From an uncultured bacterium (lineage in GTDB: Bacteria > Bacillota > Clostridia > Lachnospirales > Lachnospiraceae): a DNA stretch of 64,000 nt. Positions 31,184-47,836 of the stretch are shown one piece after another. How positions within the stretch are numbered: the stretch's first letter is position 1; each line of letters starts with the position of its first letter. The notes beneath the pieces were generated by a model. That model was not told the DNA's origin. It saw only the letters and a program-made list of their open reading frames with translations, and searched no databases. Location: contig CANOLZ010000001.1 of NCBI GenBank assembly GCA_947567075.1, positions 25,410 to 89,409 on the forward strand, in the 5' to 3' direction. The translations under genes were made by a program, and so were the position numbers.

Positions 31184-31498
31184 ATGACAAATGCAGTAGG
31201 ATTGATAGAAGTATTTGGGCTGACTGCCGCCTTCATGGCAGCAGATGCAGGATGCAAAGCTGCCAATGTAACCCTTGAGAATTTTGATAAAAATAAACCT
31301 GCCAATGCAGATGCCCTTCCTGTTCCCCTTATTGTTATGGTGAAATTTAGAGGAAGGGTGGAAGATGTAAGGGCTGCCGTTCTTGCAGCAGAGGAAGCGG
31401 CAAATTGTGTAACAGGGGTTGTCTCGACACATGTCATAGCAAGGCCCCAAAAAGAGATTGAAGGGATGCTGAAATTAAGCGCCTTTGATAAAAATTAA
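31184..31498 (+). CDS. BMC-H shell protein, divergent (insertion at the pore loop)
   Basis: BMC-domain start [26 protein letters not shown]. The canonical K-I-G-S-G pore loop is replaced by [18 protein letters not shown]. Strong AGGAGG RBS. Confidence 0.8.
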
Positions 31499-31520
31499 GA
31501 ATAAATGGGAGGTAACAAAA

Positions 31521-31799
31521 ATGGCTCAGGAAGCGTTAGGTATGATTGAAACAAGAGGTTTGGTAGCGGCGATTGAAGCGGCGGACGCAATGACAAAGGC
31601 GGCGGAAGTTACTCTGGTAGGGACAGAGAAAATAGGCTCAGGACTTGTATCTGTCATGGTAAGAGGAGATGTAGGAGCAGTAAAAGCAGCGACAGAAGTA
31701 GGCGCAGAGGCAGCCTCTAAGTTAGGAGAATTGGTGGCAGTACATGTGATTCCAAGACCTCATGGGGATGTAGAGAAAATTCTCCCTTCACTAAAGTAG
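31521..31799 (+). CDS. BMC-H shell protein (PduA/EutM-like)
   Basis: [54 protein letters not shown] is canonical Pfam00936. ATG 31521 lies after GGGAGG. Confidence 0.9.
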
Positions 31800-31838
31800 G
31801 GGTGAACCTGGAAGCCTATCAGAAAGGCGTGAATATAA

Positions 31839-32120
31839 ATGATGAAAGCATTGGGATTTTTTGAAATACCAAGTGTGACTGCTGCTTTTGCCGCCCTGGA
31901 TGTTATGTGTAAAACAGCGGATGTTGCCTTAGTGACATGGGAACGTAAACTGGGAGGGCGGCTGGTTACTTTGATTATAGAGGGAGATGTGGCAGCTGTA
32001 TCAGCTGCCATTGAGGCGGCGGCTGCAAAAGGGATGAGGAAATGTGTCCATGGGGTCATTCCAAACCCCCATGAGGAAGTGAGAAGACTAATTGAACTTA
32101 GTGCCAGCCGTCTAAAATAG
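31839..32120 (+). CDS. BMC-H shell protein, divergent
   Basis: KALGFFEIPSVTAAFAALDVMCKTADVALVTWERKLGGRLVTLIIEGDVAAV has the BMC fold pattern but an altered pore loop (RKLGGR). Confidence 0.8.
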   Translation: MMKALGFFEIPSVTAAFAALDVMCKTADVALVTWERKLGGRLVTLIIEGDVAAVSAAIEAAAAKGMRKCVHGVIPNPHEEVRRLIELSASRLK

Positions 32121-32232
32121 TAAGGAATAATAGGTGGTGGATTGGTGAATGGCAGAGATAAAGAAAAAACCAATAGATAAGAAAGAAAATGAAAATCTGG
32201 AAATAGAGGAAAAGGCAGTCAAGGAGGTAAAA

Positions 32233-32511
32233 ATGGTACAGCAAGCATTAGGCATCATTGAAACAAGAGGATTAGTAGCAGCCATTGAAGGGGCAGATAC
32301 AATGCTTAAAGCAGCAAATGTGGATTTGGTAGGAACGGAAAAAATAGGTTCAGGGCTTGTATCTGTTATGGTAAGAGGAGATGTGGGAGCTGTAAAGTCG
32401 GCAGTGGAATCAGGAGCAAATGCAGCTTCTAAGTTAGGAGAATTGGTAGCGACCCATGTCATTCCAAGACCTCACAATGACGTAGAAAAGATTCTTCCTG
32501 TATTAAAATAA
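32233..32511 (+). CDS. BMC-H shell protein (PduA/EutM-like), paralogue of 31521-31799
   Basis: [57 protein letters not shown] 32233 lies 5 nt after AAGGAGG, so the upstream in-frame extension from 32149 is less likely. Confidence 0.88.
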
Positions 32512-32529
32512 GAGAAAGCAGGTGGAAAA

Positions 32530-33192
32530 GTGGAAGAGCAGACAAAGGAATACATTGCCAGGCTGGTGACAGAAGTTTTATGTAAGAAAGACTACGAAAC
32601 AAAGGGTTACATGGTTCCTATTGGAATATCCGCAAGACATGTCCACTTAACACAAGAGCATGTTGAAATTTTATTTGGGAAGGGATACAAGCTCACAAGG
32701 AAAAAAGACTTAATGGGTGGTCAGTTTGCAGCAAACGAGGAGGTGACCATAGTTGGAACGAAACTTCGGGCTATTGAAAATGTCCGGGTTCTAGGACCAG
32801 TAAGAACAAAGTCCCAGGTAGAAATTTCAAAGACAGATTCTTATAAATTAGGAATTGGGGTTCCAGTAAGGGAATCAGGAGATGTGGCGGGATCTGCTCC
32901 CATAGCCTTGGTAGGTCCAAAAGGGACTGTTTACTTGCAGGAAGGCTGCATTATAGCAAGGCGTCATGTCCATATGTCTCCCGGGGACGCAAAAGCTTCT
33001 GGACAAAAAGACAGAAATATTGTTTCTGTCAAAGTAGAAAATGAGAGGGGAACCATATTCAATCATGTACAGGTCCGAGTGGACGAAAGATTTACGCTGG
33101 AAATGCATATTGATGCAGATGAAGCCAATGGGGCAGGAATACAGTCAGGGGATATGGGATATTTGCTGACAGAGGAAAGAATTGAAGCCTGA
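32530..33192 (+). CDS. pduL: Phosphate propanoyltransferase with N-terminal targeting-like helix
   Basis: Duplicated PduL motifs GISARHVHL and ARRHVHMSPGDA. The N-terminal helix is TKEYIARLVTEVLCK. GTG start. Confidence 0.88.
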   Translation: MEEQTKEYIARLVTEVLCKKDYETKGYMVPIGISARHVHLTQEHVEILFGKGYKLTRKKDLMGGQFAANEEVTIVGTKLRAIENVRVLGPVRTKSQVEISKTDSYKLGIGVPVRESGDVAGSAPIALVGPKGTVYLQEGCIIARRHVHMSPGDAKASGQKDRNIVSVKVENERGTIFNHVQVRVDERFTLEMHIDADEANGAGIQSGDMGYLLTEERIEA

Positions 33193-33221
33193 AACAGGTC
33201 TATGAGAAATGGGGGATTAAA

Positions 33222-33488
33222 ATGCTTGTAGGAAAGGTTGTAGACAGTGTAATAGCTACAAGAAAAAATGAGCATTTAGTAGGTTGTAAATTTTTAATTG
33301 TAGAACCCTTTCAAAAAATGGAAGGCGGAGGGGGAAGAATAGTAGCCGTTGATAATGTAGGGGCTGGAATCGGTGAGATTGTCCTTGTAGCAAAGGGCAG
33401 CGCTGCAAGAGTAGGATGGGGTATGGAGAAGGCGCCTATAGACGCAGCTGTTGTTGGAATTGTAGACAATGGCATGGAACTGGAGTAG
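33222..33488 (+). CDS. BMC-P pentameric vertex protein (EutN/PduN/CcmL family)
   Basis: MLVGKVVDSVIATRKNEHLVGCKFLIVEP...VDNVGAGIGEIVLVAKGSAAR, 88 aa. Confidence 0.88.
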   Translation: MLVGKVVDSVIATRKNEHLVGCKFLIVEPFQKMEGGGGRIVAVDNVGAGIGEIVLVAKGSAARVGWGMEKAPIDAAVVGIVDNGMELE

Positions 33489-33494
33489 AAACTT

Positions 33495-34847
33495 ATGGAA
33501 ATAGAGGAATTAAAAGAGATTATGCGAGAAGGGGGCATTGTGGGCGCTGGAGGCGCTGGTTTTCCCTCTTATGGAAAACTAGATAAAAGAATAGAAATAA
33601 TTGTATTAAATTGTGCGGAATGCGAACCACTTCTTCGAGTACATAGACAGCTTCTCGCAAAACATGCCTATGAAATTTTAGATGCTTTAGAAGTAATAGC
33701 AGAGGCAGTAGAGGCTAAAAAAGTAATGATTGCTGTAAAAGGAGCATATAGGAAAACAATAGAGGCTGTGGAACGGGCATTTACAGAAAAAAAACGCCTC
33801 TGTCCTATGAAAATAGGAAGGCTTCCAGAAATATATCCTGCGGGGGATGAGGTCATTACCATTTATGAGGTAACTGGAAAGGTAGTGCCTCCAGGGAAAC
33901 TTCCAATTGATATAGGTATTGGGGTATTCAATGTAGAGACAATTTATAATGTTTACAGAGCGATCTTTGAAAGGCAGCCAGTAACCCATAAATATTTAAC
34001 AATAGGTGGTGAGGTGAGAGAGCCGAAAACTGTAAAGGTGCCTATTGGAATGAAAATAGAAGAGGTAGTGGAATTGGCTGGAGGCTCCCTCGTAAAAGAA
34101 CCTGTCTATATTCATGGAGGACCTATGACTGGCCCTCTTGCATCTGGTGAGGAGGTCATTACAAAAACGTCCAATGCCCTTTTAGTATTTCACGAAAACC
34201 ATTTGGTTGTCCAAAATAAAAAGAGGAAAAACTCAGTAAGTATGAAACGGGCAATGGCTTCTTGCTGCCAATGCCGTATATGTACAGATTTATGTCCAAG
34301 AAATTTGCTGGGGCATCCCATTGAACCCCATGAATTTATGAAAGGAGCCACAAGCGGGGTTACAAGAAATATAGAACCTTTTCTCAACACTTATTATTGT
34401 TCCCAGTGTGGTATATGCGAAATGTATGCCTGCATGCAAAATTTAGCTCCCCAAAGCCTTATTGGCAGCTATAAAAATGGACTGAGGGAAAAGGGAGTAA
34501 AACCTATGAAGAACCCTTCCTTTAGGGATGTTCATCCTATGAGAAGGGAGAGAATGGTTCCTATGGGAAGGTTAATTGCCAAGCTGGGATTGACTTCTTA
34601 TGACACAGATGCTCCCCTTACAAAAGAGATCCCAAAGCCTTCTTTTTTAAAAATATCCTTAGGTCAGCATATTGGAGGGCTGGCAAAGCCAGAGGTAGCC
34701 AAAGGAGATAAAGTAAAAACTGGACAGAAAATCGCTGGCGCTATGGAAGATGCATTAAGTGTATCTTACCATGCCCCTATGGATGGAGAAGTGTGGGAAG
34801 TAACAGACCATATCATTATGATGAAAACAGAGATAGTTCATGGATAA
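33495..34847 (+). CDS. PduS/RnfC-like flavo-iron-sulfur oxidoreductase
   Basis: GIVGAGGAGFPSYGKL (NuoF/RnfC nucleotide-FMN site), an SLBB-like middle region, and two ferredoxin motifs CCQCRICTDLCP and CSQCGICEMYAC. Confidence 0.8.
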   Translation: MEIEELKEIMREGGIVGAGGAGFPSYGKLDKRIEIIVLNCAECEPLLRVHRQLLAKHAYEILDALEVIAEAVEAKKVMIAVKGAYRKTIEAVERAFTEKKRLCPMKIGRLPEIYPAGDEVITIYEVTGKVVPPGKLPIDIGIGVFNVETIYNVYRAIFERQPVTHKYLTIGGEVREPKTVKVPIGMKIEEVVELAGGSLVKEPVYIHGGPMTGPLASGEEVITKTSNALLVFHENHLVVQNKKRKNSVSMKRAMASCCQCRICTDLCPRNLLGHPIEPHEFMKGATSGVTRNIEPFLNTYYCSQCGICEMYACMQNLAPQSLIGSYKNGLREKGVKPMKNPSFRDVHPMRRERMVPMGRLIAKLGLTSYDTDAPLTKEIPKPSFLKISLGQHIGGLAKPEVAKGDKVKTGQKIAGAMEDALSVSYHAPMDGEVWEVTDHIIMMKTEIVHG

Positions 34848-34862
34848 GAAAGGGAGAGGCAG

Positions 34863-35411
34863 ATGGGAAAGGCATTGGGAATGGCAGAGTATGTTACTGT
34901 TTCAACAGGAATACAGGCAGCAGATATCATTTTAAAGACAGCAAACGTAGAAATCATAGAAGCCCAGACTGTATGTCCGGGAAAATATATTGTACTTTTT
35001 TCTGGGGAGTTAAGTGCAGTCAAGGCCTCTATGGAAGCAGCGAAAGATAGATGCAGTATGCATTTCGTTGATGGCTTTGTTTTAGGAAACCCCCATGCAT
35101 CTATTTTTCCAGCTATTTATGGGTCAACGCCCATAGAAGATGTAAAAGCTCTTGGAGTGCTGGAAACCTTTAGTGCAGCCACTATAATTGTTGCTGCTGA
35201 TGAGGCTGCAAAAACGTCCCAGGTAGAATTGGTGGAGTTAAGAATAGCAAGGGGAATGTGTGGAAAATCCTATCTCATGCTCACAGGGGAAGTGGCGGCA
35301 GTCAAAGCAGCGATAGAGAAGGCAAAAAAAGCAGCTGGTGAGAGGGGGATGCTTTTGGACAGCAGTATTATTGCAAATCCAGATCGCCAGTTATGGGACA
35401 GCATTTTGTAA
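34863..35411 (+). CDS. pduT: Tandem-domain BMC-T shell protein (PduT-like)
   Basis: Two BMC domains in 182 aa. VCPGKYIVLFSG carries the Cys that ligates the pore 4Fe-4S cluster in PduT. Confidence 0.85.
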   Translation: MGKALGMAEYVTVSTGIQAADIILKTANVEIIEAQTVCPGKYIVLFSGELSAVKASMEAAKDRCSMHFVDGFVLGNPHASIFPAIYGSTPIEDVKALGVLETFSAATIIVAADEAAKTSQVELVELRIARGMCGKSYLMLTGEVAAVKAAIEKAKKAAGERGMLLDSSIIANPDRQLWDSIL

Positions 35412-35425
35412 GAAAGGAGAAGGGC

Positions 35426-36892
35426 ATGGAAAAGAGAGTATTAGCATTTGACTTTGGAGCTTCTGGCGGAAGGGCAATGGCTGGTATTTACAACGGAGAG
35501 AAAATAATACTAGAAGAACTCCATCGGTTTTCCAATGAGCCAGTCACAGTTCGAGGAGTTATGTATTGGGACGTTCTAAGATTATTTTATGAAATGAAGC
35601 AAGGCATTTTAAAAGGGAAGCAAAAAGGGAGATTTCAAAGCATTGGCATTGACACATGGGGAGTGGATTTTGGACTATTAGATAAAGATGGAACCTTATT
35701 GGAAAACCCAGTGCATTACAGAGACAATCGCACAAAGGGCATGTTGGAAAAGAGTTTTGAGTACATAGACAAAGAGAAGTTTTATGAAATTACAGGAAAT
35801 CAATTTATGGAAATAAACACTGCCTTTCAACTCCTCTCCTTATCTCAAAATAGGCCAGAGTTTTTAGAAAGAGGGAAAACTTTGCTGCTCATGCCAGACT
35901 TATTTACATATATGTTAACAGGAGTGAAAAGTGCAGAATATTCTATTGCCTCCACGACCCAGCTCCTTGATGCTAGGAAAAGATCCTGGTCTTACTATGT
36001 TATAGAAAAGTTAGGTCTTCCAAAACATATTTTTCCTACGATTGTACAAAGTGGTACAAAGATTGGACCAATAAGTAAAGAAATATGCCAGGAGCTCATT
36101 ATAGATTCTGTAGATGTAATTTCTGTAGCTTCTCATGATACACAGAGCGCTCTTTTGGCAGTGACGGCAAAGGAAAAAGATTTTCTATTTATTAGCTGTG
36201 GCACATGGTCTTTGATTGGCACAGAATTAGAGGAACCAATTATTAATGAAAAGTCTCAAAAGTACAATATTACAAATGAGGGAGGATGTGATAAAAAGGC
36301 TGTTTTTCTAAAAAATATGATTGGACTTTGGCTCATACAAGAAAGCAGGAGACAGTGGATAAGAGAAGGAAAGGAATACGGATTTGGAGACTTGGAAAAA
36401 CTGGCAAAAGAGGCAAGAGGCTTCCTTTCCTTTGTGGATCCTGATGCGCCAGAGTTTGTTCCCCAGGGAGATATACCAGGAAAGATCCGAGAATTTTGCA
36501 AAAAAACAAATCAGCCTGTTCCTGAAACCATAGGTGAAATCGTAAGGTGCATTCATGAAAGCCTGGCATTGAAATATAGAATTGCTTTAGAGGAAATAGA
36601 GGAATGTACAGGGAAAAAATATGAGACAATTTATATGGTAGGAGGGGGAACCCAGAGTAAACTTCTCTGTCAGTGCACAGCCAATGCATGTAACAGAACC
36701 GTTGCGGCAGGTCCAGTGGAGGCTACAGTACTTGGAAATCTTGTGCTTCAGCTTGTGGCATCTGGGGACATTGGAGGTACAAAAGAGGCTAGGGAGTTGA
36801 TTGCCCAATCCCAAAAAATAAATATATATGAGCCAAATAGAGGAGGGGAGTGGGAGGAAGCTTACGGAAGATTTAAAAGTCTTTTTATGTAA
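35426..36892 (+). CDS. FGGY-family sugar kinase (rhamnulokinase/L-fuculokinase type)
   Basis: VLAFDFGASGGRAMAG...LHRFSNEPV...YWDVLRLF is the RhaB-like N-terminus, plus GIDTWGVDFGLLD and VGGGTQSKLL. Confidence 0.85.
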   Translation: MEKRVLAFDFGASGGRAMAGIYNGEKIILEELHRFSNEPVTVRGVMYWDVLRLFYEMKQGILKGKQKGRFQSIGIDTWGVDFGLLDKDGTLLENPVHYRDNRTKGMLEKSFEYIDKEKFYEITGNQFMEINTAFQLLSLSQNRPEFLERGKTLLLMPDLFTYMLTGVKSAEYSIASTTQLLDARKRSWSYYVIEKLGLPKHIFPTIVQSGTKIGPISKEICQELIIDSVDVISVASHDTQSALLAVTAKEKDFLFISCGTWSLIGTELEEPIINEKSQKYNITNEGGCDKKAVFLKNMIGLWLIQESRRQWIREGKEYGFGDLEKLAKEARGFLSFVDPDAPEFVPQGDIPGKIREFCKKTNQPVPETIGEIVRCIHESLALKYRIALEEIEECTGKKYETIYMVGGGTQSKLLCQCTANACNRTVAAGPVEATVLGNLVLQLVASGDIGGTKEARELIAQSQKINIYEPNRGGEWEEAYGRFKSLFM

Positions 36893-37620: not shown

Positions 37621-38030
37621 GAGGGCATTTTTTTATAGTTCCTTTTATATTTTAAGGCAGTGGATTTCTTTTTGAAGCTCTATATTTTCCTTTCCGTGCA
37701 AAAAAAGGAAGAACCAGACACGCCGCCACTGATTGTCTATAAGGCGGATGGCCGGGTGGCTGACTTTTTCCCGCCTGGACACATGGCTGAACTTTCACAT
37801 ATGAAACAGATTGAAGAAGGAAAATAGGCTGTTTTATGGGATTCTTATTTGTTATTGTTTGAGCGTATATAAGGGGATTTTATGGGAGGTAAAACACTGA
37901 ACTTTTCCAATAAATCCAGTATTTACGCCACATTGTACTGAACGCCAATTTGTGATATGATGTGTATATTAAACAGAACAATGAACAGAAGTTTGCTTAG
38001 GAGATAAATCAAAAATTAGAGGAGAATGTT

Positions 38031-38390
38031 ATGATACATCATTGGCTTGGCTGGATTTCTTTAGGAGTATGTATTTTGCTTTTAGCTAAATATATTGGTA
38101 GGATATCCAATAATAAAAAGGTAAATCAGTTACTTAGAAAAATTCATAAGCCATTAGGAATGATGGTTATAGGTATTGCAACAATACATGGAGTTATTTC
38201 TTTTATAAAAAATCCTCAAGCAATCATTCAGAACATAACGGGATTGAGTCTTTTCGTATTGATTTTTAATTTGGCAATAACATTTTATGCAAGAAAAAGA
38301 TTAAAAGTTAAATGGTTTCAAATTCACCGATATTTAGCAATTTTACTTTGTATCCTAATGGCTATCCATATAATCCTATCTTTTTCGTAG
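38031..38390 (+). CDS. Small 4-TM membrane protein with conserved-looking His pairs
   Basis: Four hydrophobic segments. His residues sit in TM2, TM4 and adjacent loops (KIHKPLG, TIHGV, QIHRY, AIHII), reminiscent of di-haem b-type or ferric-reductase-like modules. RBS is GAGGAG. Confidence 0.6.
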   Translation: MIHHWLGWISLGVCILLLAKYIGRISNNKKVNQLLRKIHKPLGMMVIGIATIHGVISFIKNPQAIIQNITGLSLFVLIFNLAITFYARKRLKVKWFQIHRYLAILLCILMAIHIILSFS

Positions 38391-38698
38391 TGATGCATTG
38401 ACAAATCCCCATTTCCTGAATCTGCAATGCATTACATACGAAATAGGGTCTGTCAAACGGTAAATTATTTCTGTTATGAAAGGCCCTATTTGAATAAAAC
38501 TATCGCTCACAGACAGTAAAATGTCCTTATTAACCTTAAGAAAGTTCTATTTGCTGGATTATATGACGGAATGATTTTATAAAGAGTATGGATATATTTC
38601 TGGGAAAATTCTCTTATTTTATGATTCTATGGCTGGCCTTCTTGAGAGATTGTCTTACCTATAGGCTTATGGTTTTCTTTTAATGTAACCCATAAACA

Positions 38699-38727
38699 TT
38701 GTTTGAGCCTATTGGGTATGATATAAT
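38699..38727 (+). promoter_or_regulatory. Sigma-A-type promoter with extended -10
   Basis: TTGTTT (38699-38704), a 17-nt spacer ending in TGA, then TATAAT (38722-38727). It lies 50 nt upstream of ATG 38777. Confidence 0.5.
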
Positions 38728-38776
38728 AAAAGCAGATTATTTTCCCATGAAGATACTCTTAAGGAGGTGTTTTAAA

Positions 38777-40777
38777 ATGAAAAGTTTCTCCATAAATTTG
38801 CGAGGACGGGTAAAAAATTTTAATCTTCCTAAAAATCAACCTCTCTTTCCCCTCTTTGAAGCTATTGCCAATTCTATACACGCTATTGATGAGAGAAAAA
38901 AGGCTAAAGAACAATTTGATAGTTACATTACAATCAATCTTATACGTGACAATCAACTAACCCTATTTGGAATAGGTGAACTTTCTCCAATTTGTTCATT
39001 TGAGATTACGGATAATGGTGTTGGATTCAATGAACGAAATTTTACATCCTTTATGGAATCTGATTCAACATATAAAGCTTCTATTGGAGGAAAGGGAGTT
39101 GGCAGATTTTCGTGGTTAGTTGCTTTTGAAAAAGCTGAAATTAGGAGTATTTTTTTTGATGATGTTAGATGGGTTAAACGGGAATTTGAGTTTTCAGTAG
39201 AGCAATCGGAAATAAAGGAAGGACTTGAAGAGTATGAAACCCAGAAAGATAATCAAACTCTTGTTCGACTTGTAAACTGCCAAAATCCTTATCAAAAAGC
39301 CATTCCAAAGCGAGGATTAACCATTGCTACACGAATTATGCAACATTGCTTAGTATACTTTATTTCTGATGAATGTCCACAAATGAACTTAATAGACAAT
39401 GGTGAGAAATATAACCTCAATCAAATGTTTAGGGAAAAAATTCAAACAGAAGAAAATAGCAAAACCTTTCTTATTGGCAATGAAATATTTGAATTACTTC
39501 ATGTAAAATCAGAGGAAACATCTATTAATGGAAATAAATTATATCTTTGTGCACATAATCGTCTGGTTGACACAAAAGAATTGGATAAGTACATTACAAA
39601 TTTGGATAGAGAAATTTATGAAAAAAGCGGCTTTTGGTATATTGGTGTTTTACGTAGTAAGTATTTAGATGATAATGTTGATATGAATCGTCTTTCATTT
39701 AATATTCCTGATAGTGGCTCATCAGAAGGTATGATAAAAATGATTACAATGGAGCAGATTATGAAGTCTGTCATTGTAGAAATAAATGAGTTTTTAAAGG
39801 ATTATCTTCAGCCAATTGCAGAAAATAAGTTGAAGAGAATTACAGAATATGTAACCTATCAGGCTCCCCAATTTCGGCATTTACTAAAATATATGCCAGA
39901 AGCCTTGGCTAAAATGAAACCGAACTTGAGTGAAGACAAAATGGATGATGAATTACATCGTATAAAAAGAGAGTTTGACCGTTATACATCAAAGGAGAAT
40001 ACAAAACTAATAAATGATCTGAATAAAGGTATTATAAATTCAGAGGAATATATCAAAAGATTTGGACAACAAATAGAAAAAATCAATAGTGCAAATGGAG
40101 CCACCCTAGCCGAATATGTGGCACATCGAAAAGTTATTCTTGATTTGATGGACTTTGGAATTCGTCAAAATAATAATGGACATTTCCAAAAAGAAAGTTT
40201 TTTGCATAACTTAATATACCCTATGAGGACGTCAGATGTAGACATTCCTTATCATAATCATAATTTATGGCTTATTGATGAGAAATTAGCTTATTGCAGC
40301 TACATTTCTTCTGATATACCATTCAATAATCATCCAAAGGAAGATAGAACAGATATTATGATTCTTGACAGCCCTGTTGCGGTGTCCGATGAAGAAAATC
40401 ATGGCAGAGAATATGAGAATATTATATTATTCGAATTAAAACGTCCTATGAGAAACGATTATAATCACAGTACAAACCCTGTAAATCAGTTATATGAATA
40501 TGTGGCATCTTTAAAAACAAATAAAATTAAAGATAAAGATGGAAGGATTATCCGAGTTGGAGATAACACAAAATTTTATTTGTATGCAGTTTGTGACTTA
40601 ACGAGTACCTTAGAGCATATTTTAGATTTTCATGACTTTTCCCAAACACCTGATAAAATGGGCTATTACAAATACAATGATAAAATGAATGCATATATTG
40701 AAATAGTATCTTATGATAAAATTATCAATGATGCAAAGAAACGTAACAAAATATTATTTGATAAATTAGGCATCTGA
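38777..40777 (+). CDS. GHKL (MORC/Hsp90/MutL-like) ATPase fused to a C-terminal PD-(D/E)xK-like nuclease domain
   Basis: Bergerat motifs FEAIANSIHAI (E-x3-N), ITDNGVGFN and IGGKGVGRFS, then a helical middle region. The C-terminus has ESFLHNLIYP...TDIMILD...ILFELKRP...NQLYEY (D...ExK). AAGGAGG lies 9 nt upstream of the ATG. Confidence 0.8.
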   Translation: MKSFSINLRGRVKNFNLPKNQPLFPLFEAIANSIHAIDERKKAKEQFDSYITINLIRDNQLTLFGIGELSPICSFEITDNGVGFNERNFTSFMESDSTYKASIGGKGVGRFSWLVAFEKAEIRSIFFDDVRWVKREFEFSVEQSEIKEGLEEYETQKDNQTLVRLVNCQNPYQKAIPKRGLTIATRIMQHCLVYFISDECPQMNLIDNGEKYNLNQMFREKIQTEENSKTFLIGNEIFELLHVKSEETSINGNKLYLCAHNRLVDTKELDKYITNLDREIYEKSGFWYIGVLRSKYLDDNVDMNRLSFNIPDSGSSEGMIKMITMEQIMKSVIVEINEFLKDYLQPIAENKLKRITEYVTYQAPQFRHLLKYMPEALAKMKPNLSEDKMDDELHRIKREFDRYTSKENTKLINDLNKGIINSEEYIKRFGQQIEKINSANGATLAEYVAHRKVILDLMDFGIRQNNNGHFQKESFLHNLIYPMRTSDVDIPYHNHNLWLIDEKLAYCSYISSDIPFNNHPKEDRTDIMILDSPVAVSDEENHGREYENIILFELKRPMRNDYNHSTNPVNQLYEYVASLKTNKIKDKDGRIIRVGDNTKFYLYAVCDLTSTLEHILDFHDFSQTPDKMGYYKYNDKMNAYIEIVSYDKIINDAKKRNKILFDKLGI

Positions 40778-42310: not shown

Positions 42311-42905
42311 CTATATTGTTTGATTTGCTTTTAATTTTTTTACTTCCTCAATGGAAAGGTCAACAAATTCAGCAATCTTTTCAAGGGTTATTGTTCCATC
42401 TGCCAGCATTTCATAATACATATCGGACGCATTAGTACATGAAAAATCATGCATGAGCTTTCCTAGTGGCGTATCACCACGATAAGCGCCATTTACATAC
42501 AATTTGTGGGAGCCGTCTCCAAACTTCTCATTTGTCCCTAAAAAACAGCGTTCAATCTGGTATAATGGCAATCCTTTCTTCATGACATCATTTTCGGTAA
42601 TAAAGATTACCCATGTTTCGGGAAGAGAATCAAAATCCTTGCCCTTTTTTCCCAGCGCCTTTGTCAGCTCGTTGAATTCTTACGGAATGATTCAACAGAT
42701 TTTCCACGAATACTTGAGTGTGAACGTCCAGTACTTTTAAATCTGTCTTTTCTAATATAATTTGTAGCACTAGTTCTATACTTGCTGTATCTTCTTCGAA
42801 ACACTTTGTAAAAAAATCATCATCAAGTAGGCGAAAATATTGTAATCTCTGTAAATCTTCTTGATGTTTCTGTTCTATGTGTTCTGTTACTGTCAATGTT
42901 CCCAC
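42311..42905 (-). pseudogene. Frameshifted Rpn-family / PD-(D/E)xK 'putative transposase' gene
   Basis: Two adjacent ORFs (42630-42905 and 42311-42583) together give the typical architecture (LLDDDFFTKCFE...VFVENL...; ...LPLYQIERCFLGT...YVNGAYRGDTPLGKLMHDF). They are separated by a frame break. Confidence 0.65.
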
Positions 42906-43612: not shown

Positions 43613-44182
43613 ATGAAAGAGAAGAAAAAATGGTTGAACATCATGGAAGAGAAGGTAAAACAATCTGGAATTTTGTGGGCAGGAGTCCTTATGCTCATTT
43701 TAAGTGTCCTTCTTTATACGCCAAAAGTCATTAGTGTAAGCAATAGTGTCGATGGAAGGGAACTTCCTATTTATTGTGTAGACACAAAGGAAAATAAAGT
43801 GGCTTTAAGTTTCGATGCAGCTTGGGGAAATGAAGATACAGGGAAGATTTTGGAAATATTAAGAAAACATAATGTGAAAGTCACTTTTTTTATGACAGGA
43901 GGATGGGTATCCAAATATCCAGAAGATGTGAAGGCTATATTGGCAGATGGGCATGACTTGGGAAATCATAGTGAAAATCATAAAAATATGTCCAAAATTT
44001 CCGATGAGGAATGTAAGGAAGAATTAATGTCCGTACATAATAAAGTAAAAGAATTAACAGGATATGAAATGTTTTTATTCCGTCCTCCTTATGGAGATTA
44101 TGATAACCATGTTATTACAAATGCGAAAAAATGTGGTTATTATTCTATCCAGTGGGATGTGGATACATGGGATACAACATGA
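43613..44182 (+). CDS. 5' segment of a split PdaB-like NodB deacetylase gene
   Basis: TM anchor, then ELPIYCVDTKENKVALSFDAAWGNEDT, GNHSENH and FRPPYGDYD. It is colinear with the intact paralogue at 46805-47836 up to ...YYSIQWDVD, then diverges and stops after 5 codons. Confidence 0.85.
   Translation: MKEKKKWLNIMEEKVKQSGILWAGVLMLILSVLLYTPKVISVSNSVDGRELPIYCVDTKENKVALSFDAAWGNEDTGKILEILRKHNVKVTFFMTGGWVSKYPEDVKAILADGHDLGNHSENHKNMSKISDEECKEELMSVHNKVKELTGYEMFLFRPPYGDYDNHVITNAKKCGYYSIQWDVDTWDTT
44157..44164 (+). repeat. Left copy of the 8-bp core (attL-like)
   Basis: ATGTGGAT at the point where homology to the intact paralogue ends. Confidence 0.75.
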
Positions 44183-44341
44183 AAAAAGGAGGAAAGCCAG
44201 CATTCCTGCCGGCTGTATGAAAAAGAAGTTATAGAAAATACGATTTTAATTATAAGGATAGAATATGGAGATTTTATAGCGAAAGTGTAACGAATTTCAG
44301 ACCAAATTGTAAAAACTATATTATATTTAAGGGAGTATTTC

Positions 44342-44497
44342 ATGAAAATAAAACATACTTTTTTACACCATTGGGAAAAGGATGAAGATAGAGAGGTTAG
44401 CAGAAAGAGAAAATATGAAGATTTAGTTTGGGCAATCAAAAAGAAAAGGGAGGAGTGTGCGTGGGGGCAGAAGCAATCTACGCAAGACAATCAGTAG
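44342..44497 (+). CDS. Small charged ORF (51 aa) overlapping the recombinase start; possible excision cofactor
   Basis: The ATG lies ~6 nt after AAGGGAG. Sequence is MKIKHTFLHHWEKDEDREVSRKRKYEDLVWAIKKKREE.... It overlaps the recombinase start by 37 nt. There is no homology evidence. Confidence 0.3.
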   Translation: MKIKHTFLHHWEKDEDREVSRKRKYEDLVWAIKKKREECAWGQKQSTQDNQ

Positions 44498-45888
44498 ATA
44501 AAAAAGAGTCGTTGTCTATAGAAGGCCAGATAGAACTGTGCAAGAAAGAGTGCAAAGACACAAAAGACGTATTTATCTATCAAGATAGGGGATACAGTGG
44601 TAAAAATACAAAAAGGCCGGGATTTAAAGAGATGATAGAAGATGTAAAACAAGGAAAAATTGAAAAAATCATTGTTTACCGATTGGATCGCCTTAGCCGT
44701 TCTATTGTAGACTTTGGACAAATTTGGAGTTTGCTAGAAAAAAATGGTGTAGAATTTGTGTCAATAAATGAAAAATTTGATACATCCACTCCTATGGGCA
44801 GGGCTATGATCTACATTATTATGGTATTTGCACAGTTGGAGAGGGAGACAATTGGAGAGAGAGTACGAGATAATTATTATGCAAGAATTCAAAAAGGCCA
44901 CTGGCCAGGAGGTATTGCTCCTTATGGATTTTGCAATATTCAAAAAATAGATGAAACAGGGAGGCAGGTTCCTTCCCTAAAACAAGAAAAAGAAATAGAA
45001 ATAGTAAAATGGATTTTTCAGGAATATGAGAAGGAGAATGCTTCTCTTGGAAAAATAGCAAGAAGCTTGACAGAAGCAAAGGTTGCCTGTAAGAAGAGAT
45101 GGGGTTGGGATAACGTTGCCTTGTCAAGAATACTCCACTCTCCCGTTTATGTAAAGGCAGATGAGAAAATTTATAATTATTTTAAAGAAAAGGGAAACTA
45201 TGTATTTTCCAATACTATGGAGGAGTTTGATGGAAAGAGGGCGGCCCATATTATAGGAAAGGGAAAGGAAGGGCAAGTATTGTCACTGACAAATTTTGAG
45301 GGGACCATTTCATCTAATCAGTGGCTGAATTGTCAAAGGAAATTGGAGAGAAACAAACAAATAGGTAATTCTGGGAAAGGAAAATATACTTTTTTATCAG
45401 GTCTTATAAAATGTGGGAAATGTGGGTATAGTTTAAACGTCCGATGCAGCAGAAAAAAATTATATTTAGGGTGTAGTGGGCATTCCAACTTACATATTTG
45501 CGATGTAAAGAAAATTTCCTTTTCCATTGAAGAGCTGGAAGACTTGGTAAGAACAGAAATGGAATTTATATTTGAACAATGCCAAAAAAGCTATTTTATA
45601 AAAAGGGATGGGGAGAGTACCTTGGAAAGCTTAGAGAAAAAAATAGCAGCCCTGGTACATAAGCTGGCAGAGACATCTGGGGTCAGCAGTTACTACATTA
45701 AAAAAGAAATAGAGAAAATAGATGAGGAGAAAAAGGAATTGCTGAATAAAAAGGAAAAAATACAGAGGGGAGCCCCTTTTTTTTCTTTCCATCAATTGAG
45801 TTTTGAGGAGAAAAAGCTAGCAGTTTATACATTTATTGATAAAATATTCGTGACGGATTTTGAAATAGAAATTGTGTGGAAGGGGTAA
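44461..45888 (+). CDS. Large serine recombinase (SpoIVCA/CisA-like)
   Basis: The resolvase domain has AIYARQSVDKKESLSIEGQ (Ser nucleophile) and YRLDRLSRS. It also has a recombinase domain, a Cys-rich zinc-ribbon-like region CGKCGYSLNVRCSRKKLYLGCSGHSNLHIC and a C-terminal coiled coil. GTG lies 7 nt after GGGAGG. Confidence 0.9.
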   Translation: MGAEAIYARQSVDKKESLSIEGQIELCKKECKDTKDVFIYQDRGYSGKNTKRPGFKEMIEDVKQGKIEKIIVYRLDRLSRSIVDFGQIWSLLEKNGVEFVSINEKFDTSTPMGRAMIYIIMVFAQLERETIGERVRDNYYARIQKGHWPGGIAPYGFCNIQKIDETGRQVPSLKQEKEIEIVKWIFQEYEKENASLGKIARSLTEAKVACKKRWGWDNVALSRILHSPVYVKADEKIYNYFKEKGNYVFSNTMEEFDGKRAAHIIGKGKEGQVLSLTNFEGTISSNQWLNCQRKLERNKQIGNSGKGKYTFLSGLIKCGKCGYSLNVRCSRKKLYLGCSGHSNLHICDVKKISFSIEELEDLVRTEMEFIFEQCQKSYFIKRDGESTLESLEKKIAALVHKLAETSGVSSYYIKKEIEKIDEEKKELLNKKEKIQRGAPFFSFHQLSFEEKKLAVYTFIDKIFVTDFEIEIVWKG

Positions 45889-45937
45889 AGTGTTATATAA
45901 TAGAAAATATACTCGTAATGGATGGAGGAAATCATTT

Positions 45938-46396
45938 ATGGATCAAACACTAAAGGAGAAAATCTTAAAGCTGTTTCAAGATAATGAAGATATTTGTGTA
46001 GATTATTCATTGTTTTTAGACAGCAAAGCAGACACAGAGTTTGTAGGGTGTACTGGAAAAGAGAAGAAAAAGTACTGGGATATTTTTCAGCATATGGAAC
46101 AGAAGGCTCCTGGGACAAAGATTGTTATTCATATTTATGACGAGGAAGATGGAAGATGGTTTGCAGACGATGCTTATTTGGAGACCAGTTTGTCAGAAGA
46201 AGACTTAAAAGGAATTTTTGAGAAGTTTAATGAGCAATATGAAGAATATTTATCCCCTAGCCAGCTCCACTGTGTAAAAGAAGAGGAGAGAGATTATTAT
46301 ATGAAGGGATATTATGTGAGAGACGGCGGGGAGAGTCAGAGACTATCAGAATATTTAAAGGGAGAATACTTTGTTTTTTATTGCTGGTGGGATTGA
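45938..46396 (+). CDS. Hypothetical acidic 152-aa protein carried by the element
   Basis: The ATG lies 9 nt after GGAGG. No recognisable motifs. It ends in ...YFVFYCWWD. Confidence 0.55.
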   Translation: MDQTLKEKILKLFQDNEDICVDYSLFLDSKADTEFVGCTGKEKKKYWDIFQHMEQKAPGTKIVIHIYDEEDGRWFADDAYLETSLSEEDLKGIFEKFNEQYEEYLSPSQLHCVKEEERDYYMKGYYVRDGGESQRLSEYLKGEYFVFYCWWD

Positions 46397-46421
46397 CCAT
46401 AGGTGTTTTAAGATGTATACA

Positions 46422-46429
46422 ATGTGGAT
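46422..46429 (+). repeat. Right copy of the 8-bp core (attR-like)
   Basis: ATGTGGAT immediately precedes resumption of the deacetylase reading frame. Confidence 0.75.
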
Positions 46430-46669
46430 TCCTTAGACTGGAAAGACTATGGGGTGGATTCCATCGTTAATACGGTATGTAACCATAAACATTTAGGAAA
46501 GGGATCGATTATCCTTTGTCACAATGGAGCCAAATATACAGCTCAGGCACTGGAATCGGTCATTACAGGGCTTCAGGAAAAAGGGTACCAGATTGTGCCT
46601 ATTTCCCAGCTCATTTATAAAGATAATTATCATATGGATCATGAAGGACGTCAGGTGAAAAATATTTGA
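46424..46669 (+). CDS. 3' segment of the split PdaB-like NodB deacetylase gene
   Basis: (V)DSLDWKDYGVDSIVNTVCNHKHLGKGSIILCHNGAKYTAQALESVITGLQEKGYQIVPISQLI aligns residue-for-residue with the C-terminus of 46805-47836. Confidence 0.85.
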   Translation: MDSLDWKDYGVDSIVNTVCNHKHLGKGSIILCHNGAKYTAQALESVITGLQEKGYQIVPISQLIYKDNYHMDHEGRQVKNI

Positions 46670-46804: not shown

Positions 46805-47836
46805 ATGGACGAAAGAAGAAGGAGAAGAAGATTACAAAAAGCAAGGAAAAAGAGAAAAAAGAAAATAATTTTATTTTCTACAGTGGCTTGTCTGCTTCTA
46901 GGAACGGCAGCCCTTGTGGTGAGCTGCCGTACAACAGAAGCCTCTTTGGATAATGACAGGCCTGAGACTGTGCCAGACGTTGCCAGGGTAACCTCAGACG
47001 CCGTGAAAAAAGAAACAGAAGTTCAAGATGGGAACAGTGGGCTGCCTGTTAGCCCTGAACCAGTTTCTTCTCCCTTAGCCCCTCCTGTAGAAGAAGGAGA
47101 TAATCAAGAGACAGAGAAGCAGAATGAAAGTATAGTTAGCTCTTCTGTTTTTCCTGAGGCAGTGGGAGGAACTTATACAGTAAATGGAAGGGAACTTCCA
47201 ATTTATTGTGTGGAGACAGAGGAGAAAAAAGTAGCTTTAAGTTTTGACGCAGCCTGGGGAAATGAGGATACCGTTCAGATTTTAGACATATTAAGAAAGT
47301 ACAATATAAAAACGACTTTCTTTATGACAGGGGAGTGGGTATCAAAGTTTCCTGAGGATGTGAAGGCGCTTTTGGCAGATGGACATGATTTAGGAAACCA
47401 TGGTGAAAATCATAAAAACATGTCCCAGCTTTCTGATGCAGAGAATAAGGAAGAAATCATGGCTGTACATAACAGAGTAAAGGAATTGACAGGGTATGAG
47501 ATGCGTTTATTCCGTCCGCCTTATGGAGATTATGACAGTGAAGTAGTCACAAGTGCAAAGGAATGCGGTTATTATACAATTCAGTGGGATGTGGATTCCC
47601 TGGATTGGAAAAATTTTGGAGTAGATTCTATTATTGATACAGTATGCAATCACAAAAGTTTAGGAAACGGCTCCATCATTCTCTGCCATAATGGAGCTCA
47701 ATATACCGCACTGGCTTTAGAGTCTTTAATTACAGGGCTTCAGGAGAAGGGATATGAAATTGTTCCTATCTCTGAACTTATTATGAAAGAGAATTTTCAT
47801 TTAAATGCAATAGGACGTCAAATAAAAGACTCTTAA
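46805..47836 (+). CDS. NodB-family polysaccharide deacetylase (PdaB-like), intact paralogue
   Basis: Basic N-terminus, a TM segment and a P/S/E-rich linker, then the NodB core ELPIYCVETEEKKVALSFDAAWGNEDT, GNHGENH, FRPPYGDYD and ILCHNG. Confidence 0.88.
   Translation: MDERRRRRRLQKARKKRKKKIILFSTVACLLLGTAALVVSCRTTEASLDNDRPETVPDVARVTSDAVKKETEVQDGNSGLPVSPEPVSSPLAPPVEEGDNQETEKQNESIVSSSVFPEAVGGTYTVNGRELPIYCVETEEKKVALSFDAAWGNEDTVQILDILRKYNIKTTFFMTGEWVSKFPEDVKALLADGHDLGNHGENHKNMSQLSDAENKEEIMAVHNRVKELTGYEMRLFRPPYGDYDSEVVTSAKECGYYTIQWDVDSLDWKNFGVDSIIDTVCNHKSLGNGSIILCHNGAQYTALALESLITGLQEKGYEIVPISELIMKENFHLNAIGRQIKDS

Follow-up and report, generated by a model that had tools for sequence, protein, structure and literature searches.

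On the forward strand of the window, by which we mean the whole 64,000-nucleotide stretch of Lachnospiraceae DNA that was analyzed, a single gene joins an N-terminal GHKL ATPase to a predicted C-terminal nuclease. The gene, its upstream signals, and the domains of its product are the following.

38777..40777, + strand: complete coding sequence of the paraMORC3 / Shedu type I-D (VcSduA-like) family, 666 aa plus stop, assigned by homology to VcSduA
38699..38727, + strand: promoter-like site of putative function, with a TTGTTT -35 element (3/6), a 17-nt spacer, and an extended -10 element TGaTATAAT (38719-38727)
38762..38767, + strand: Shine-Dalgarno sequence AGGAGG, 9 nt 5' of ATG 38777
38777..39256, + strand: GHKL (Bergerat-fold) ATPase domain, residues 1-~160, with motif I E28-x3-N32, motif II D79-N-G-V-G83, and motif III G104-GKGVGR110
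39257..39706, + strand: beta-rich middle (S5 / transducer-like) domain, residues ~161-310, a confident region of the model, with R305 invariant
39749..40162, + strand: helical linker, residues ~325-462, with five helices in the model secondary structure, two of them long (386-416 and 422-462)
40184..40774, + strand: predicted PD-(D/E)xK nuclease domain (divergent DUF4263/SduA_C type), residues ~470-666, with E473 (H477), D526, E553-L-K555, and Q571 as motifs I-IV

The reading frame is open on the forward strand from 38699 to 40777, and translation from ATG 38777 gives the 666-aa protein. Since this ATG is preceded by the Shine-Dalgarno sequence AGGAGG and matches the start residue of the homologs, whose N-termini (consensus MRxFSINL) coincide with that of its product, we take it as the start codon. 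Some public gene predictions begin at TTG 38699 and give a 692-aa product, a start that we rejected on the same 2 grounds. The gene is confirmed as real and intact. At E≤1e-3 its product matches 1,435 database proteins, and 1,087 representatives (50% clustering) match at E≤1e-30, nearly all of them over the full length. The identical 666-aa protein is also found on several independent metagenome contigs.

The initial annotation credited the gene with its own strong promoter at 38699-38727. Read from the sequence, the extended -10 element is indeed perfect but the -35 element is weak, and promoter-like matches are frequent in the AT-rich DNA here, with 38 found versus 21.9 ± 4.9 expected. A consensus scan did not list this site and gave only a weaker overlapping variant at 38693-38722. 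The site is not statistically separable from the AT-rich background, and a role as promoter is plausible. No terminator was detected for the 38777-40777 gene.

The AT-rich islet described initially is evident in the base composition. GC content is 0.28-0.33 across 38.0-41.0 kb, whereas the upstream operon at 30.0-37.0 kb has 0.38-0.46 and the sequence at 41-42 kb has 0.40-0.41; at 42-46 kb it is GC-poor again (0.33-0.36). The gene debris reported alongside was also recovered, in that the gene lies between a 1.1-kb ORF-free stretch and frameshifted or truncated genes, and in the interval at 36.9-38.0 kb no ORF exceeds 86 aa and neither an Rfam family nor a tRNA is present. A search for the boundaries of the islet gave no tRNA or Rfam family, and no direct or inverted repeats flanking it were convincing. 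One candidate boundary, a 15-nt repeat at 37854 and 38698, was rejected, as its copies share no downstream sequence and their likeness is probably due to chance. No conspecific strain without the gene was found; a search for the exact kinase protein gave no record, and the one long contig recovered through the BMC protein is laid out in the same way.

Domains of the encoded protein

Every motif quoted in the initial annotation, both for the Bergerat fold and for the E...D...ExK...Q order, lies where it was said to lie. FEAIANSIHAI occupies residues 27-37, DNGVGF residues 79-84, and GGKGVGRFS residues 104-112, followed in the C-terminal part by ESFLHNLIYP at 473-482, TDIMILD at 525-531, ILFELKRP at 550-557, and NQLYEY at 570-575. 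Conservation was assessed in a set of 56 homologs with 31-57% identity. The ATPase residues N32, D79, G81, G83, G104, G107, G109, and R110 are invariant among them, as are E473, H477, D526, E553, and K555 of the nuclease, while E28 of the ATPase and Q571 of the nuclease are at least 90% conserved. The motifs of both domains are conserved far beyond chance.

The assignment of the N-terminus to the GHKL ATPases holds up in structural comparisons. Residues 1-440 of the AlphaFold model resemble Hsp90/TRAP1, GyrB 43K, and MutL/MLH1 (Foldseek E ~1e-9 to 4e-11), in alignments of 320-450 columns that compare a domain within a longer model and continue into the middle region of Hsp90, the transducer of GyrB, and the S5 region of MutL. 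Bergerat motifs I-III are common to the window protein and the N-terminal modules of Hsp90/TRAP1, GyrB 43K, and MutL, and these structural matches share only 9-15% sequence identity with it. Pfam HATPase_c_3 is matched by 26 of the 56 family members and HATPase_c by 19; the window protein itself matches only HATPase_c_3, below threshold (E=0.011; 16.2 bits vs a gathering score of 25). Searches of PDB chain sequences with the whole protein and with the family profile gave only marginal matches to the Hsp90 N-domain (E ~0.01), and no MORC structure was among the top 50 Foldseek matches of residues 1-440. The window protein lacks a chaperone, topoisomerase, or mismatch-repair partner domain, its GHKL module being fused to a nuclease instead. 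In the model the linker has pLDDT values of mostly 80-94 as far as residue ~430, and we infer that it may serve as a dimerization or clamp arm.

When the C-terminal domain is modeled in isolation (pLDDT 82, pTM 0.81), its six best fold-family matches are all PD-(D/E)xK enzymes, namely McrC, NucS, Can2, NucC, AF1548, and MUS81. The match to NucS 2vld has a probability of 0.94 with 22% identity over 128 columns, and that to McrC 6hz4 has E=0.009; the Foldseek scores of this domain are modest (E ~0.01, TM ~0.3). In the full-length prediction, residues 472-530, from motif I to motif II, are at pLDDT <50. Sequence and C-terminal profile searches of the nuclease domain against PDB chains returned no match. 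NucS/EndoMS, McrC, and Can2 have N-terminal partner domains unlike that of the window protein. The predicted fold supports the view that the C-terminus is a PD-(D/E)xK nuclease of the Shedu/NucS kind.

Relation to VcSduA, paraMORC3, and Shedu

The initial annotation could not map the fusion to a named system, a view that must be given up, as the protein has a full-length homolog in VcSduA and falls within paraMORC3 and Shedu type I-D. In BLASTP against VcSduA (P0308, a record without the first 22 aa) the alignment of 656 columns has 33% identity (E=4e-118) and runs collinearly over residues 24-666, and the N-terminal 399 aa of VcSduA alone match it from residue 3 (E=1e-68). VcSduA (A1552VC_00276, AWB73059.1) is encoded in the VSP-II island of the Vibrio cholerae WASA lineage (PMC12137116, Nat Microbiol 2025). 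It protects against T1-like phages, by >10,000-fold in the case of Bas01, and does so at all MOIs and non-abortively; a single-gene construct protected E. coli (PMC12137116). ATP hydrolysis is required, and a dimer is predicted while a tetramer is unsupported (PMC12137116). Residue E28 of the window protein aligns with VcSduA E27, and E553-x-K555 aligns with VcSduA E555-x-K557. Phage defense is abolished in the E27A and K557A mutants of VcSduA (PMC12137116).

VcSduA and the window protein, at 673 and 666 aa, have the same order of GHKL domain, middle domain, helical linker, and PD-(D/E)xK domain. VcSduA is a single-gene system, as the window protein is predicted to be, and neither matches Pfam SduA_C in hmmscan. 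They differ in host, which is a gamma-proteobacterium for VcSduA and a Clostridia gut bacterium for the window protein, and in neighborhood, with VcSduA adjoining GrwAB in VSP-II, whereas the window gene has a microcompartment operon on one side and polysaccharide deacetylase genes on the other. The published table of VcSduA homologs includes the Clostridia Alkaliphilus, Blautia, Dehalobacter, and Chakrabartyella (PMC12137116). Over its first 98 residues the Alkaliphilus entry, AMET_RS07940, is ~84% identical to 2 database proteins (P0103 and P0105), each of which is 60% identical to the window protein at full length. Since the identity to VcSduA, the sole tested member, is only 33%, the phage range and trigger of the window protein may differ from those of VcSduA.

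The same architecture was described by Iyer, Abhiman and Aravind as paraMORC3, in which GHKL and S5 domains precede a C-terminal domain of the restriction-endonuclease fold that carries an E-D-ExK motif (Biol Direct 2008, PMC2292703). These authors reported a wide but sporadic distribution, with prevalence in Proteobacteria and Bacteroidetes and genes often standing alone without conserved neighbors, related the nuclease to the RecB family, and left the function open (PMC2292703). ParaMORCs are without the MORC-specific signature motif (PMC2292703), and we do not class the window gene as MORC. We observe the GHKL motifs, the E-D-ExK nuclease motif, the sporadic spread, and the lack of a conserved neighborhood again here, in a member from Bacillota, and our genome scan shows many members in Bacillota, Cyanobacteria, and Acidobacteriota and a few in Archaea. 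Gu et al. 2023 placed the GHKL class of Shedu in type I-D, described an Hsp90-middle-like domain, 'N24', in these proteins, and speculated that the GHKL N-terminal domains might sense misfolded proteins (bioRxiv 10.1101/2023.08.10.552793). To judge from its sequence, the window gene is a member of this described paraMORC3 / Shedu type I-D / VcSduA family and not a new system. As the architecture was predicted in 2008 (paraMORC3), classified in 2023 (Shedu type I-D), and validated in 2025 (VcSduA), its discovery value is small.

The relationship to canonical Shedu is more distant. SduA of Bacillus cereus B4264 and the window protein each combine a regulatory N-terminal region with a C-terminal PD-(D/E)xK domain in one protein, and the order of motifs is alike (E204/D249/E264-K266/Q295 in B. 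cereus SduA vs E473/D526/E553-K555/Q571 here), but the spacing from D to E is 27 in the window protein vs 15 in B. cereus SduA and that from K to Q is 16 vs 29. Among solved folds, canonical Shedu is closest to EndoMS/NucS, which is also one of the top 2 fold families for the window C-terminus. An hhalign comparison of the C-terminal profile with 39 canonical Shedu proteins scored 26.4 (E=0.012, probability 3.6%), above 200/200 column shuffles (mean 17.1, max 26.2), in an alignment that spans the Pfam-defined SduA_C region and keeps the D, ExK, and Q motifs in register. Together with the PD-(D/E)xK fold matches, this supports the initial reading of a Shedu-like nuclease C-terminus.

In searches with Pfam SduA_C (PF14082), 1 of the 56 family members matched (E=0.004), and hmmscan gave no match for the window protein or its isolated C-terminus, nor for VcSduA at E≤1. 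At E≤1e-3 an HMM built from canonical Shedu recovered none of the ORFs of the GHKL family, and solved Shedu structures were absent from the top 50 fold matches of the C-terminal model. VcSduA is labeled DUF4263 in the literature and in UniRef. This pattern of matches indicates remote homology of the window C-terminus to canonical SduA_C rather than profile-level membership. Canonical Shedu and VcSduA are both non-abortive, but canonical Shedu works independently of ATP and is switched on when tetramers assemble into an octamer and the motif II loop is released, whereas VcSduA needs ATP hydrolysis. Since VcSduA is a predicted dimer and a tetramer is unsupported, activation through an octamer may not apply to the GHKL type.

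Annotation libraries do not recover the family. An NCBIfam search of the window protein returned nothing, and PADLOC 2023, which the initial annotation had put forward as a check, gave no usable match for the window protein or the 56 homologs. We rejected as spurious a PADLOC 'SduA' match to residues 396-443, which belong to the helical linker. The family, present in at least 558 species, is missed by Pfam, NCBIfam/PGAP (where it is an 'ATP-binding protein'), and PADLOC 2023, and gut Clostridia defense censuses therefore under-count it.

Genomic context, proposed working, and alternatives

Homologs occur in many phyla, including some Archaea, with a patchy distribution that is incongruent with taxonomy. 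Of the 53 plasmids that carry them, 28 are conjugative, and one temperate phage has a homolog adjoining its integrase. None of 80 other-species loci has flanks in common with the window gene, and no synteny is shared even with homologs of 74-81% identity. No conserved partner gene was found among 113 flanking genes from 60 genomes, in which the commonest Pfam/PADLOC family accounts for at most 5; N6_Mtase, at 4/113, is among the most frequent. Neighbors include Type I R-M, HNH, Kiwa, Gabija GajB, DRT reverse transcriptases, Type IIG/ISP enzymes, and CBASS, and integrases and IS genes are frequent. On a V. fluvialis plasmid the homolog adjoins canonical Shedu and Type I R-M, and this adjacency to canonical Shedu recurs in 0 of 80 other loci. 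Homologs are thus usually found among defense and mobile-element genes, in keeping with the proposal of a stand-alone, defense-island gene. Of the findings that the initial annotation had named as speaking against such a system, 3 can be sought in silico, and each was looked for: the C-terminus is predicted to be a nuclease fold, the catalytic residues are conserved among homologs, and no housekeeping synteny was seen.

With homology to VcSduA over its full length, both catalytic centers conserved, predicted folds for its domains, no partner gene, and relatives in defense-island and mobile-element contexts, the window gene probably encodes an anti-phage (anti-invading-DNA) enzyme of the paraMORC3/Shedu type I-D kind that works alone and spreads horizontally, related to VcSduA at the level of an ortholog. 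We infer that the GHKL ATPase and S5/transducer-like domain would dimerize upon ATP binding, as in Hsp90, GyrB, MutL, and MORC, and that the dimerized ATPase and middle domains, together with the long linker helices, would make up a DNA-engaging clamp. Binding and hydrolysis of ATP would then license the C-terminal nuclease (E473, D526, E553, K555, and Q571) to cut invading DNA, so that the cell is protected directly and without suicide. Such an enzyme would have to discriminate foreign from self DNA, and it would presumably be active in its own Clostridia host. A compact, strongly conserved member from Bacillota could, alongside VcSduA, become a second model for how a GHKL ATPase would gate a nuclease in this family and how foreign DNA would be recognized.

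It is possible, though we consider it rather unlikely, that the nuclease domain is only a distant cousin of DUF4263 and that the family consists of ATP-driven dimeric clamps of the Hsp90/MutL/MORC kind, unlike canonical Shedu. This reading arises because the sequence link to DUF4263 is marginal and because Iyer et al. related the domain to RecB-type nucleases. The clamp would capture a particular form of DNA, such as ends, supercoils, or modified or replicating phage DNA, after which the nuclease would fire. If this were true, the name 'Shedu type I-D' would be one of convenience, covering a restriction enzyme that is gated by ATP and distinct in mechanism, and the trigger and phage range could be peculiar to the Bacillota clade.

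The favored reading, of a mobile enzyme directed mainly at phages, also has to be set against other roles for the gene. The carriage of homologs on 53 plasmids and beside the integrase of a temperate phage, together with the integrases and IS genes frequent among their neighbors, would suit a module that acts mainly against plasmids and other mobile elements, or that serves its carrier element in competition or addiction, and a nuclease against incoming DNA is in principle blind to the difference between phage and plasmid. Mobile-element carriage is, however, typical for phage-defense genes generally, there is no antitoxin-like partner gene, and VcSduA is strongly anti-phage (>10,000-fold vs Bas01), so that we regard a mainly non-phage role as improbable.

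Several homologs adjoin Type I R-M genes, paraMORC families are found mainly in R-M operons, and cooperation with unlinked genes has been raised for stand-alone paraMORC3 (PMC2292703). The GHKL module might accordingly remodel or translocate DNA as an accessory or motor subunit of an unlinked R-M system, with no self-sufficient defense, which is how MORC and paraMORC ATPases were first conceived. This is very improbable, as VcSduA alone protected E. coli and the window protein has a complete nuclease site of its own, no R-M family exceeds 4/113 neighbors (the count of N6_Mtase), and the DNA up to ~5 kb from the window gene showed neither a methyltransferase gene nor any R-M gene.

The resemblance of the N-terminus to Hsp90, GyrB, and MutL, the presence of NucS/EndoMS among the top C-terminal matches, and the speculation of Gu et al. 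on misfolded proteins (10.1101/2023.08.10.552793) could all point to a housekeeping DNA-repair or chaperone-type enzyme (MutL-, NucS/EndoMS-, or Hsp90-like) that merely resembles a defense protein. Against this, which we hold to be extremely unlikely, stand the patchy distribution, the lack of synteny even with homologs of 74-81% identity, the AT-rich islet, the defense-island neighborhoods of homologs, and the lack of linked repair genes in the window.

There is scarcely any chance that the window copy is an inactive relic, silenced or decaying like the debris and ORF-free DNA that flank it. Although the -35 element is weak and the search for a terminator gave none, the frame runs unbroken through 666 codons of AT-rich sequence, in which stop codons would readily appear, and none of the catalytic or invariant residues of the family is missing. 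The Shine-Dalgarno sequence is consensus and the extended -10 element perfect, and several independent metagenome contigs encode the identical protein.

Family assignment of the GHKL-nuclease gene

By sequence comparison, the 666-aa GHKL ATPase-nuclease fusion is a member of the family known as paraMORC3, Shedu type I-D or VcSduA, a kind of protein that has already been described and, in VcSduA, validated. The gene has the following local features.

38699-40777, + strand: open frame
38762-38767, + strand: AGGAGG preceding the ATG
38777-40777, + strand: coding sequence, 666 aa, beginning at ATG 38777

ATG 38777 was accepted as the start because of the Shine-Dalgarno sequence at 38762-38767 and because the N-terminal residues agree with the homologue consensus MRxFSINL, so the extent proposed in the initial annotation was kept. 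Every motif listed there was also found in the protein. Its remark that the fusion could not be matched to a named defence system is superseded by the comparisons below.

The paraMORC3 architecture was defined as GHKL and S5 domains followed at the C-terminus by a domain of restriction-endonuclease fold bearing an E-D-ExK motif (Iyer, Abhiman, Aravind 2008, PMC2292703). Shedu homologues that begin with GHKL (HATPase_c_3) and carry an Hsp90-middle-like "N24" domain were later grouped under type 1D, with its enzymatic N-terminal domains (Gu et al. 2023, bioRxiv 10.1101/2023.08.10.552793). V. cholerae VcSduA (673 aa), in which a GHKL ATPase forms the N-terminal part and a DUF4263 nuclease the C-terminal part, shields E. 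coli from T1-like phages (>10,000-fold for Bas01); it protects at all MOIs, which points to a non-abortive mechanism, and E27A and K557A each end its defence (Adams et al. 2025, PMC12137116). The first 399 residues of VcSduA, taken from the preprint supplement, were collinear with the window protein (33% identity, E=1e-68). Searching the database with this fragment retrieved P0308, which is VcSduA itself at 100% identity; its annotation begins at an internal start codon, 22 codons further down, and UniRef calls it "DUF4263 domain-containing protein". Against this full-length protein, the alignment extends collinearly to the last residue (33% identity, 656 columns, E=4e-118), and VcSduA E27 corresponds to E28, and E555-I-K557 to E553-L-K555, of the window protein. 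The authors' table of VcSduA homologues has 543 entries and includes Clostridia proteins (Adams et al. 2025, PMC12137116), among them Alkaliphilus metalliredigens AMET_RS07940, which over its visible 98 residues is about 84% identical to P0103 and P0105, database homologues that match the window protein at 60% identity over their full length. The VcSduA alignment and these Clostridia entries place the window gene within the published family.

Domain architecture and conservation

Pfam matched the window protein only to HATPase_c_3, under the gathering score (E=0.011), and NCBIfam gave no match; among 56 family members, HATPase_c_3 was matched by 26 and HATPase_c by 19. The full-length AlphaFold2 model (pLDDT 78) is confident from residue 1 to about 440, and Foldseek aligned this part with the N-terminal modules of Hsp90/TRAP1 (E=4e-11), GyrB 43K and MutL/MLH1. 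These alignments span 320-450 columns, which suggests a middle/transducer/S5-like domain in addition to the predicted GHKL fold. A helical linker follows the middle domain in the model (residues about 325-462). The sole PADLOC match in the protein falls in this linker and is spurious.

Since the C-terminal part was poor in the full-length model (pLDDT <50 at residues 472-530), residues 455-666 were modelled separately from 35 diverse sequences, giving pLDDT 82 and pTM 0.81. The best PDB fold families of this model, namely McrC (E=0.009), NucS/EndoMS (E=0.015, probability 0.94, 22% identity over 128 columns), Can2, NucC, AF1548 and MUS81, are all PD-(D/E)xK nucleases. With TM about 0.3 and weak scores, this supports the fold class, with no strong match to any single nuclease family. 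The nuclease fold first read from motifs is supported, and E473, D526, E553 and K555 are invariant.

The word-indexed search returned 1,435 relatives. HMMER, run exhaustively over 1.84 billion cluster representatives, gave 3,068 matches at E<=1e-3, of which 1,087 reach E<=1e-30; nearly all are 650-700 aa long and align end to end. To judge from these sequences, the window gene is a real, conserved gene. Across the 56 homologues (31-57% identity), N32, D79, G81, G83, K100, G104, G107, G109, R110 and R305 are invariant in the N-terminal and middle regions, as are E473, H477, W498, D501, S512, D513, D526, E553, K555 and P568 in the C-terminal region, while conservation at E28 and Q571 is 90% or higher. 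Both putative catalytic centres are therefore strongly constrained. R305 of the middle domain may serve to sense the gamma-phosphate, as do the arginine in the middle domain of Hsp90 and the lysine in the transducer domain of GyrB/MutL.

The relation of the nuclease domain to canonical Shedu is the least certain point of the family assignment. Pfam SduA_C (PF14082) matched 1 of the 56 family members (E=0.004); it matched neither the window protein, whole or as the C-terminus alone, nor VcSduA. One locus carries both types:

L092, Vibrio fluvialis plasmid NZ_AP028130.1, 4622-8016: canonical Shedu (PF14082 E=1.3e-25) and GHKL-type homologue

Here the canonical gene lies directly upstream of the homologue, overlapping its start by 4 bp, and a Type I R-M operon immediately precedes both; two different Shedu architectures appear to share one operon, a pairing absent from the loci of 80 other species. 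With the L092 Shedu protein as query, 39 canonical sequences were gathered, and their profile was compared with the family's C-terminal profile by hhalign (score 26.4, E=0.012, probability 3.6%). It spans the SduA_C region, where motif II (RTDIMI / ITDFLV), motif III (fELKRP / fEIKtP), motif IV (NPVNQL / GSinQv) and, as the last strand, IEIVSYDKI / VqIvTFDEL are in register. The highest of 200 column-shuffled controls scored 26.2, below the observed value (control mean 17.1, sd 2.7), and the reversed alignment scored 17.9. B. cereus Shedu has the same E...D...ExK...Q order (E204, D249, E264/K266, Q295), and its nearest solved fold is EndoMS/NucS, NucS also being among the top two fold families for the window protein's C-terminus. 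Profile and motif order together indicate a homology to canonical DUF4263 that is remote but real; for the window protein, as for VcSduA itself, this speaks for distant relationship rather than for membership at the profile level.

Distribution, neighbourhood and proposed mechanism

The gene was found in at least 558 species in a scan of one genome per species, yet the names that NCBI PGAP gives to members go no further than "ATP-binding protein" and "hypothetical protein". The family has no NCBIfam model, is recognised by none in PADLOC-DB 2.0.0, and escapes Pfam SduA_C. The phyla include Bacillota, Cyanobacteria, Acidobacteriota, Bacteroidota, Proteobacteria, Verrucomicrobiota, Chloroflexota and Nitrospirota, along with two MAGs of Archaea (L036 and L048), one from Candidatus Ethanoperedens thermophilum and one from a Halobacteria archaeon, whose full-length homologues (34-36% identity) indicate transfer of this defence gene between domains. 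Homologues are carried by 53 plasmids, 28 of them conjugative, and one such plasmid copy, in Acinetobacter, adjoins a CBASS operon. Temperate phage vB_RanS_PJN03 (L100, ON245412.1, 2485-4509) has a full-length homologue beside its integrase (27% identity, E=3e-55); its record names the protein "N-acetylmuramoyl-L-alanine amidase", apparently a wrong annotation.

At 60 of the species-scan loci, the closest ORF on each side of the gene was surveyed with Pfam and PADLOC (113 proteins). Since no family occurred in more than 5 of the 113, there is no conserved partner gene. Recurring families were phage integrases, UvrD/GajB (Gabija), N6 methyltransferases, DRT reverse transcriptases, Type I, IIG and ISP enzymes, Mads and IS21; the C. 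botulinum homologue has an HNH gene on one side and, on the other, a Type I R-M methylase/S pair, and another lies downstream of Kiwa (KwaA/KwaB). The flanking genes of the window recur in conspecific metagenome contigs only, and in none of 80 other species, including those with homologues of 74-81% identity, which excludes housekeeping synteny. These loci present a stand-alone gene, as initially proposed, in a defence-type context.

On the best-supported account, the GHKL/S5 part would act as an ATP-operated dimeric clamp, joined by the helical linker to a PD-(D/E)xK nuclease that the ATPase cycle would license to cut invading DNA, so that protection would be direct and non-abortive. The need for both activities and the non-abortive phenotype come from VcSduA data only (Adams et al. 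2025, PMC12137116). Dimerisation and clamp geometry are drawn from the modelling in that paper (PMC12137116) and from established GHKL ATPase behaviour; that the ligand is DNA, and how self would be told from non-self, are inferences. A role as an R-M accessory, an anti-plasmid or addiction role, a housekeeping repair enzyme and a dead relic are all disfavoured: VcSduA is active as a single gene, the family has neither partner nor synteny, and the window gene is intact and fully conserved. The points of continuing interest are the coupling of ATPase to nuclease in the whole family, and its labelling in current annotation resources as no more than "ATP-binding protein".

Local DNA and other features of the window

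GC content is 0.28-0.33 over 38.0-41.0 kb versus 0.38-0.46 in the upstream operon (30.0-37.0 kb) and 0.40-0.41 directly downstream, in agreement with the AT-richness first noted. The adjacent "gene debris" is fairly described as debris or non-coding at 36.9-38.0 kb, where searches found no ORF >86 aa, Rfam family or tRNA. Searches around the gene found no 3' intrinsic terminator and no tRNA or flanking repeats marking an insertion, and no conspecific strain without the gene was found.

38719-38727, + strand: perfect extended -10 (TGaTATAAT) of a promoter-like site with a weak -35 (TTGTTT)
38031-38390: 119-aa ORF, predicted membrane-embedded, 390 nt upstream of the GHKL gene in the same AT-rich stretch

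A promoter here is plausible, but such matches are frequent in this AT-rich DNA (38 observed versus 21.9 +/- 4.9 expected), and the promoter scan does not list the site by its own criteria. The 119-aa ORF has only weak sub-threshold matches to Ferric_reduct, cytochrome b561 and DUF4405; it is kept in conspecific contigs only and shows no association with GHKL homologues elsewhere.

42311-42905, - strand: two adjoining short ORFs, 90 and 91 aa, kept in conspecific contigs
43721-44173: N-terminal part of an apparently split polysaccharide deacetylase paralogue, 75% identical to residues 117-267 of the intact one
44428-45888: large serine recombinase (Resolvase + Recombinase + Zn_ribbon_recom), between the halves
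45872-46396: 174-aa ORF, between the halves
46418-46663: C-terminal part of the split paralogue, 73% identical to residues 261-342 of the intact one
46805-47836: intact polysaccharide deacetylase paralogue

The two short ORFs gave no Pfam match at E<=0.01; they look like an Rpn / PD-(D/E)XK-type "putative transposase" gene broken in two by a frameshift. The deacetylase paralogue (43613-46663) seems to be interrupted by a 2.2-kb element. A GTGGAT core in a "(W)DVD" codon context is common to the two junctions, so that excision would restore the frame. The arrangement recalls the intervening elements that recombinases excise from sporulation genes in Bacillota. The same layout of the split paralogue is found in two conspecific contigs (L088, L089).

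31184-36892: microcompartment operon with BMC shell proteins, directly upstream
33495-34847: RnfC-like Fe-S flavoprotein, within this operon
35393-36892: FGGY sugar kinase, within this operon

This operon probably serves fucose or rhamnose use, and contig L094 carries the same operon with PTAC and EutN genes also present.
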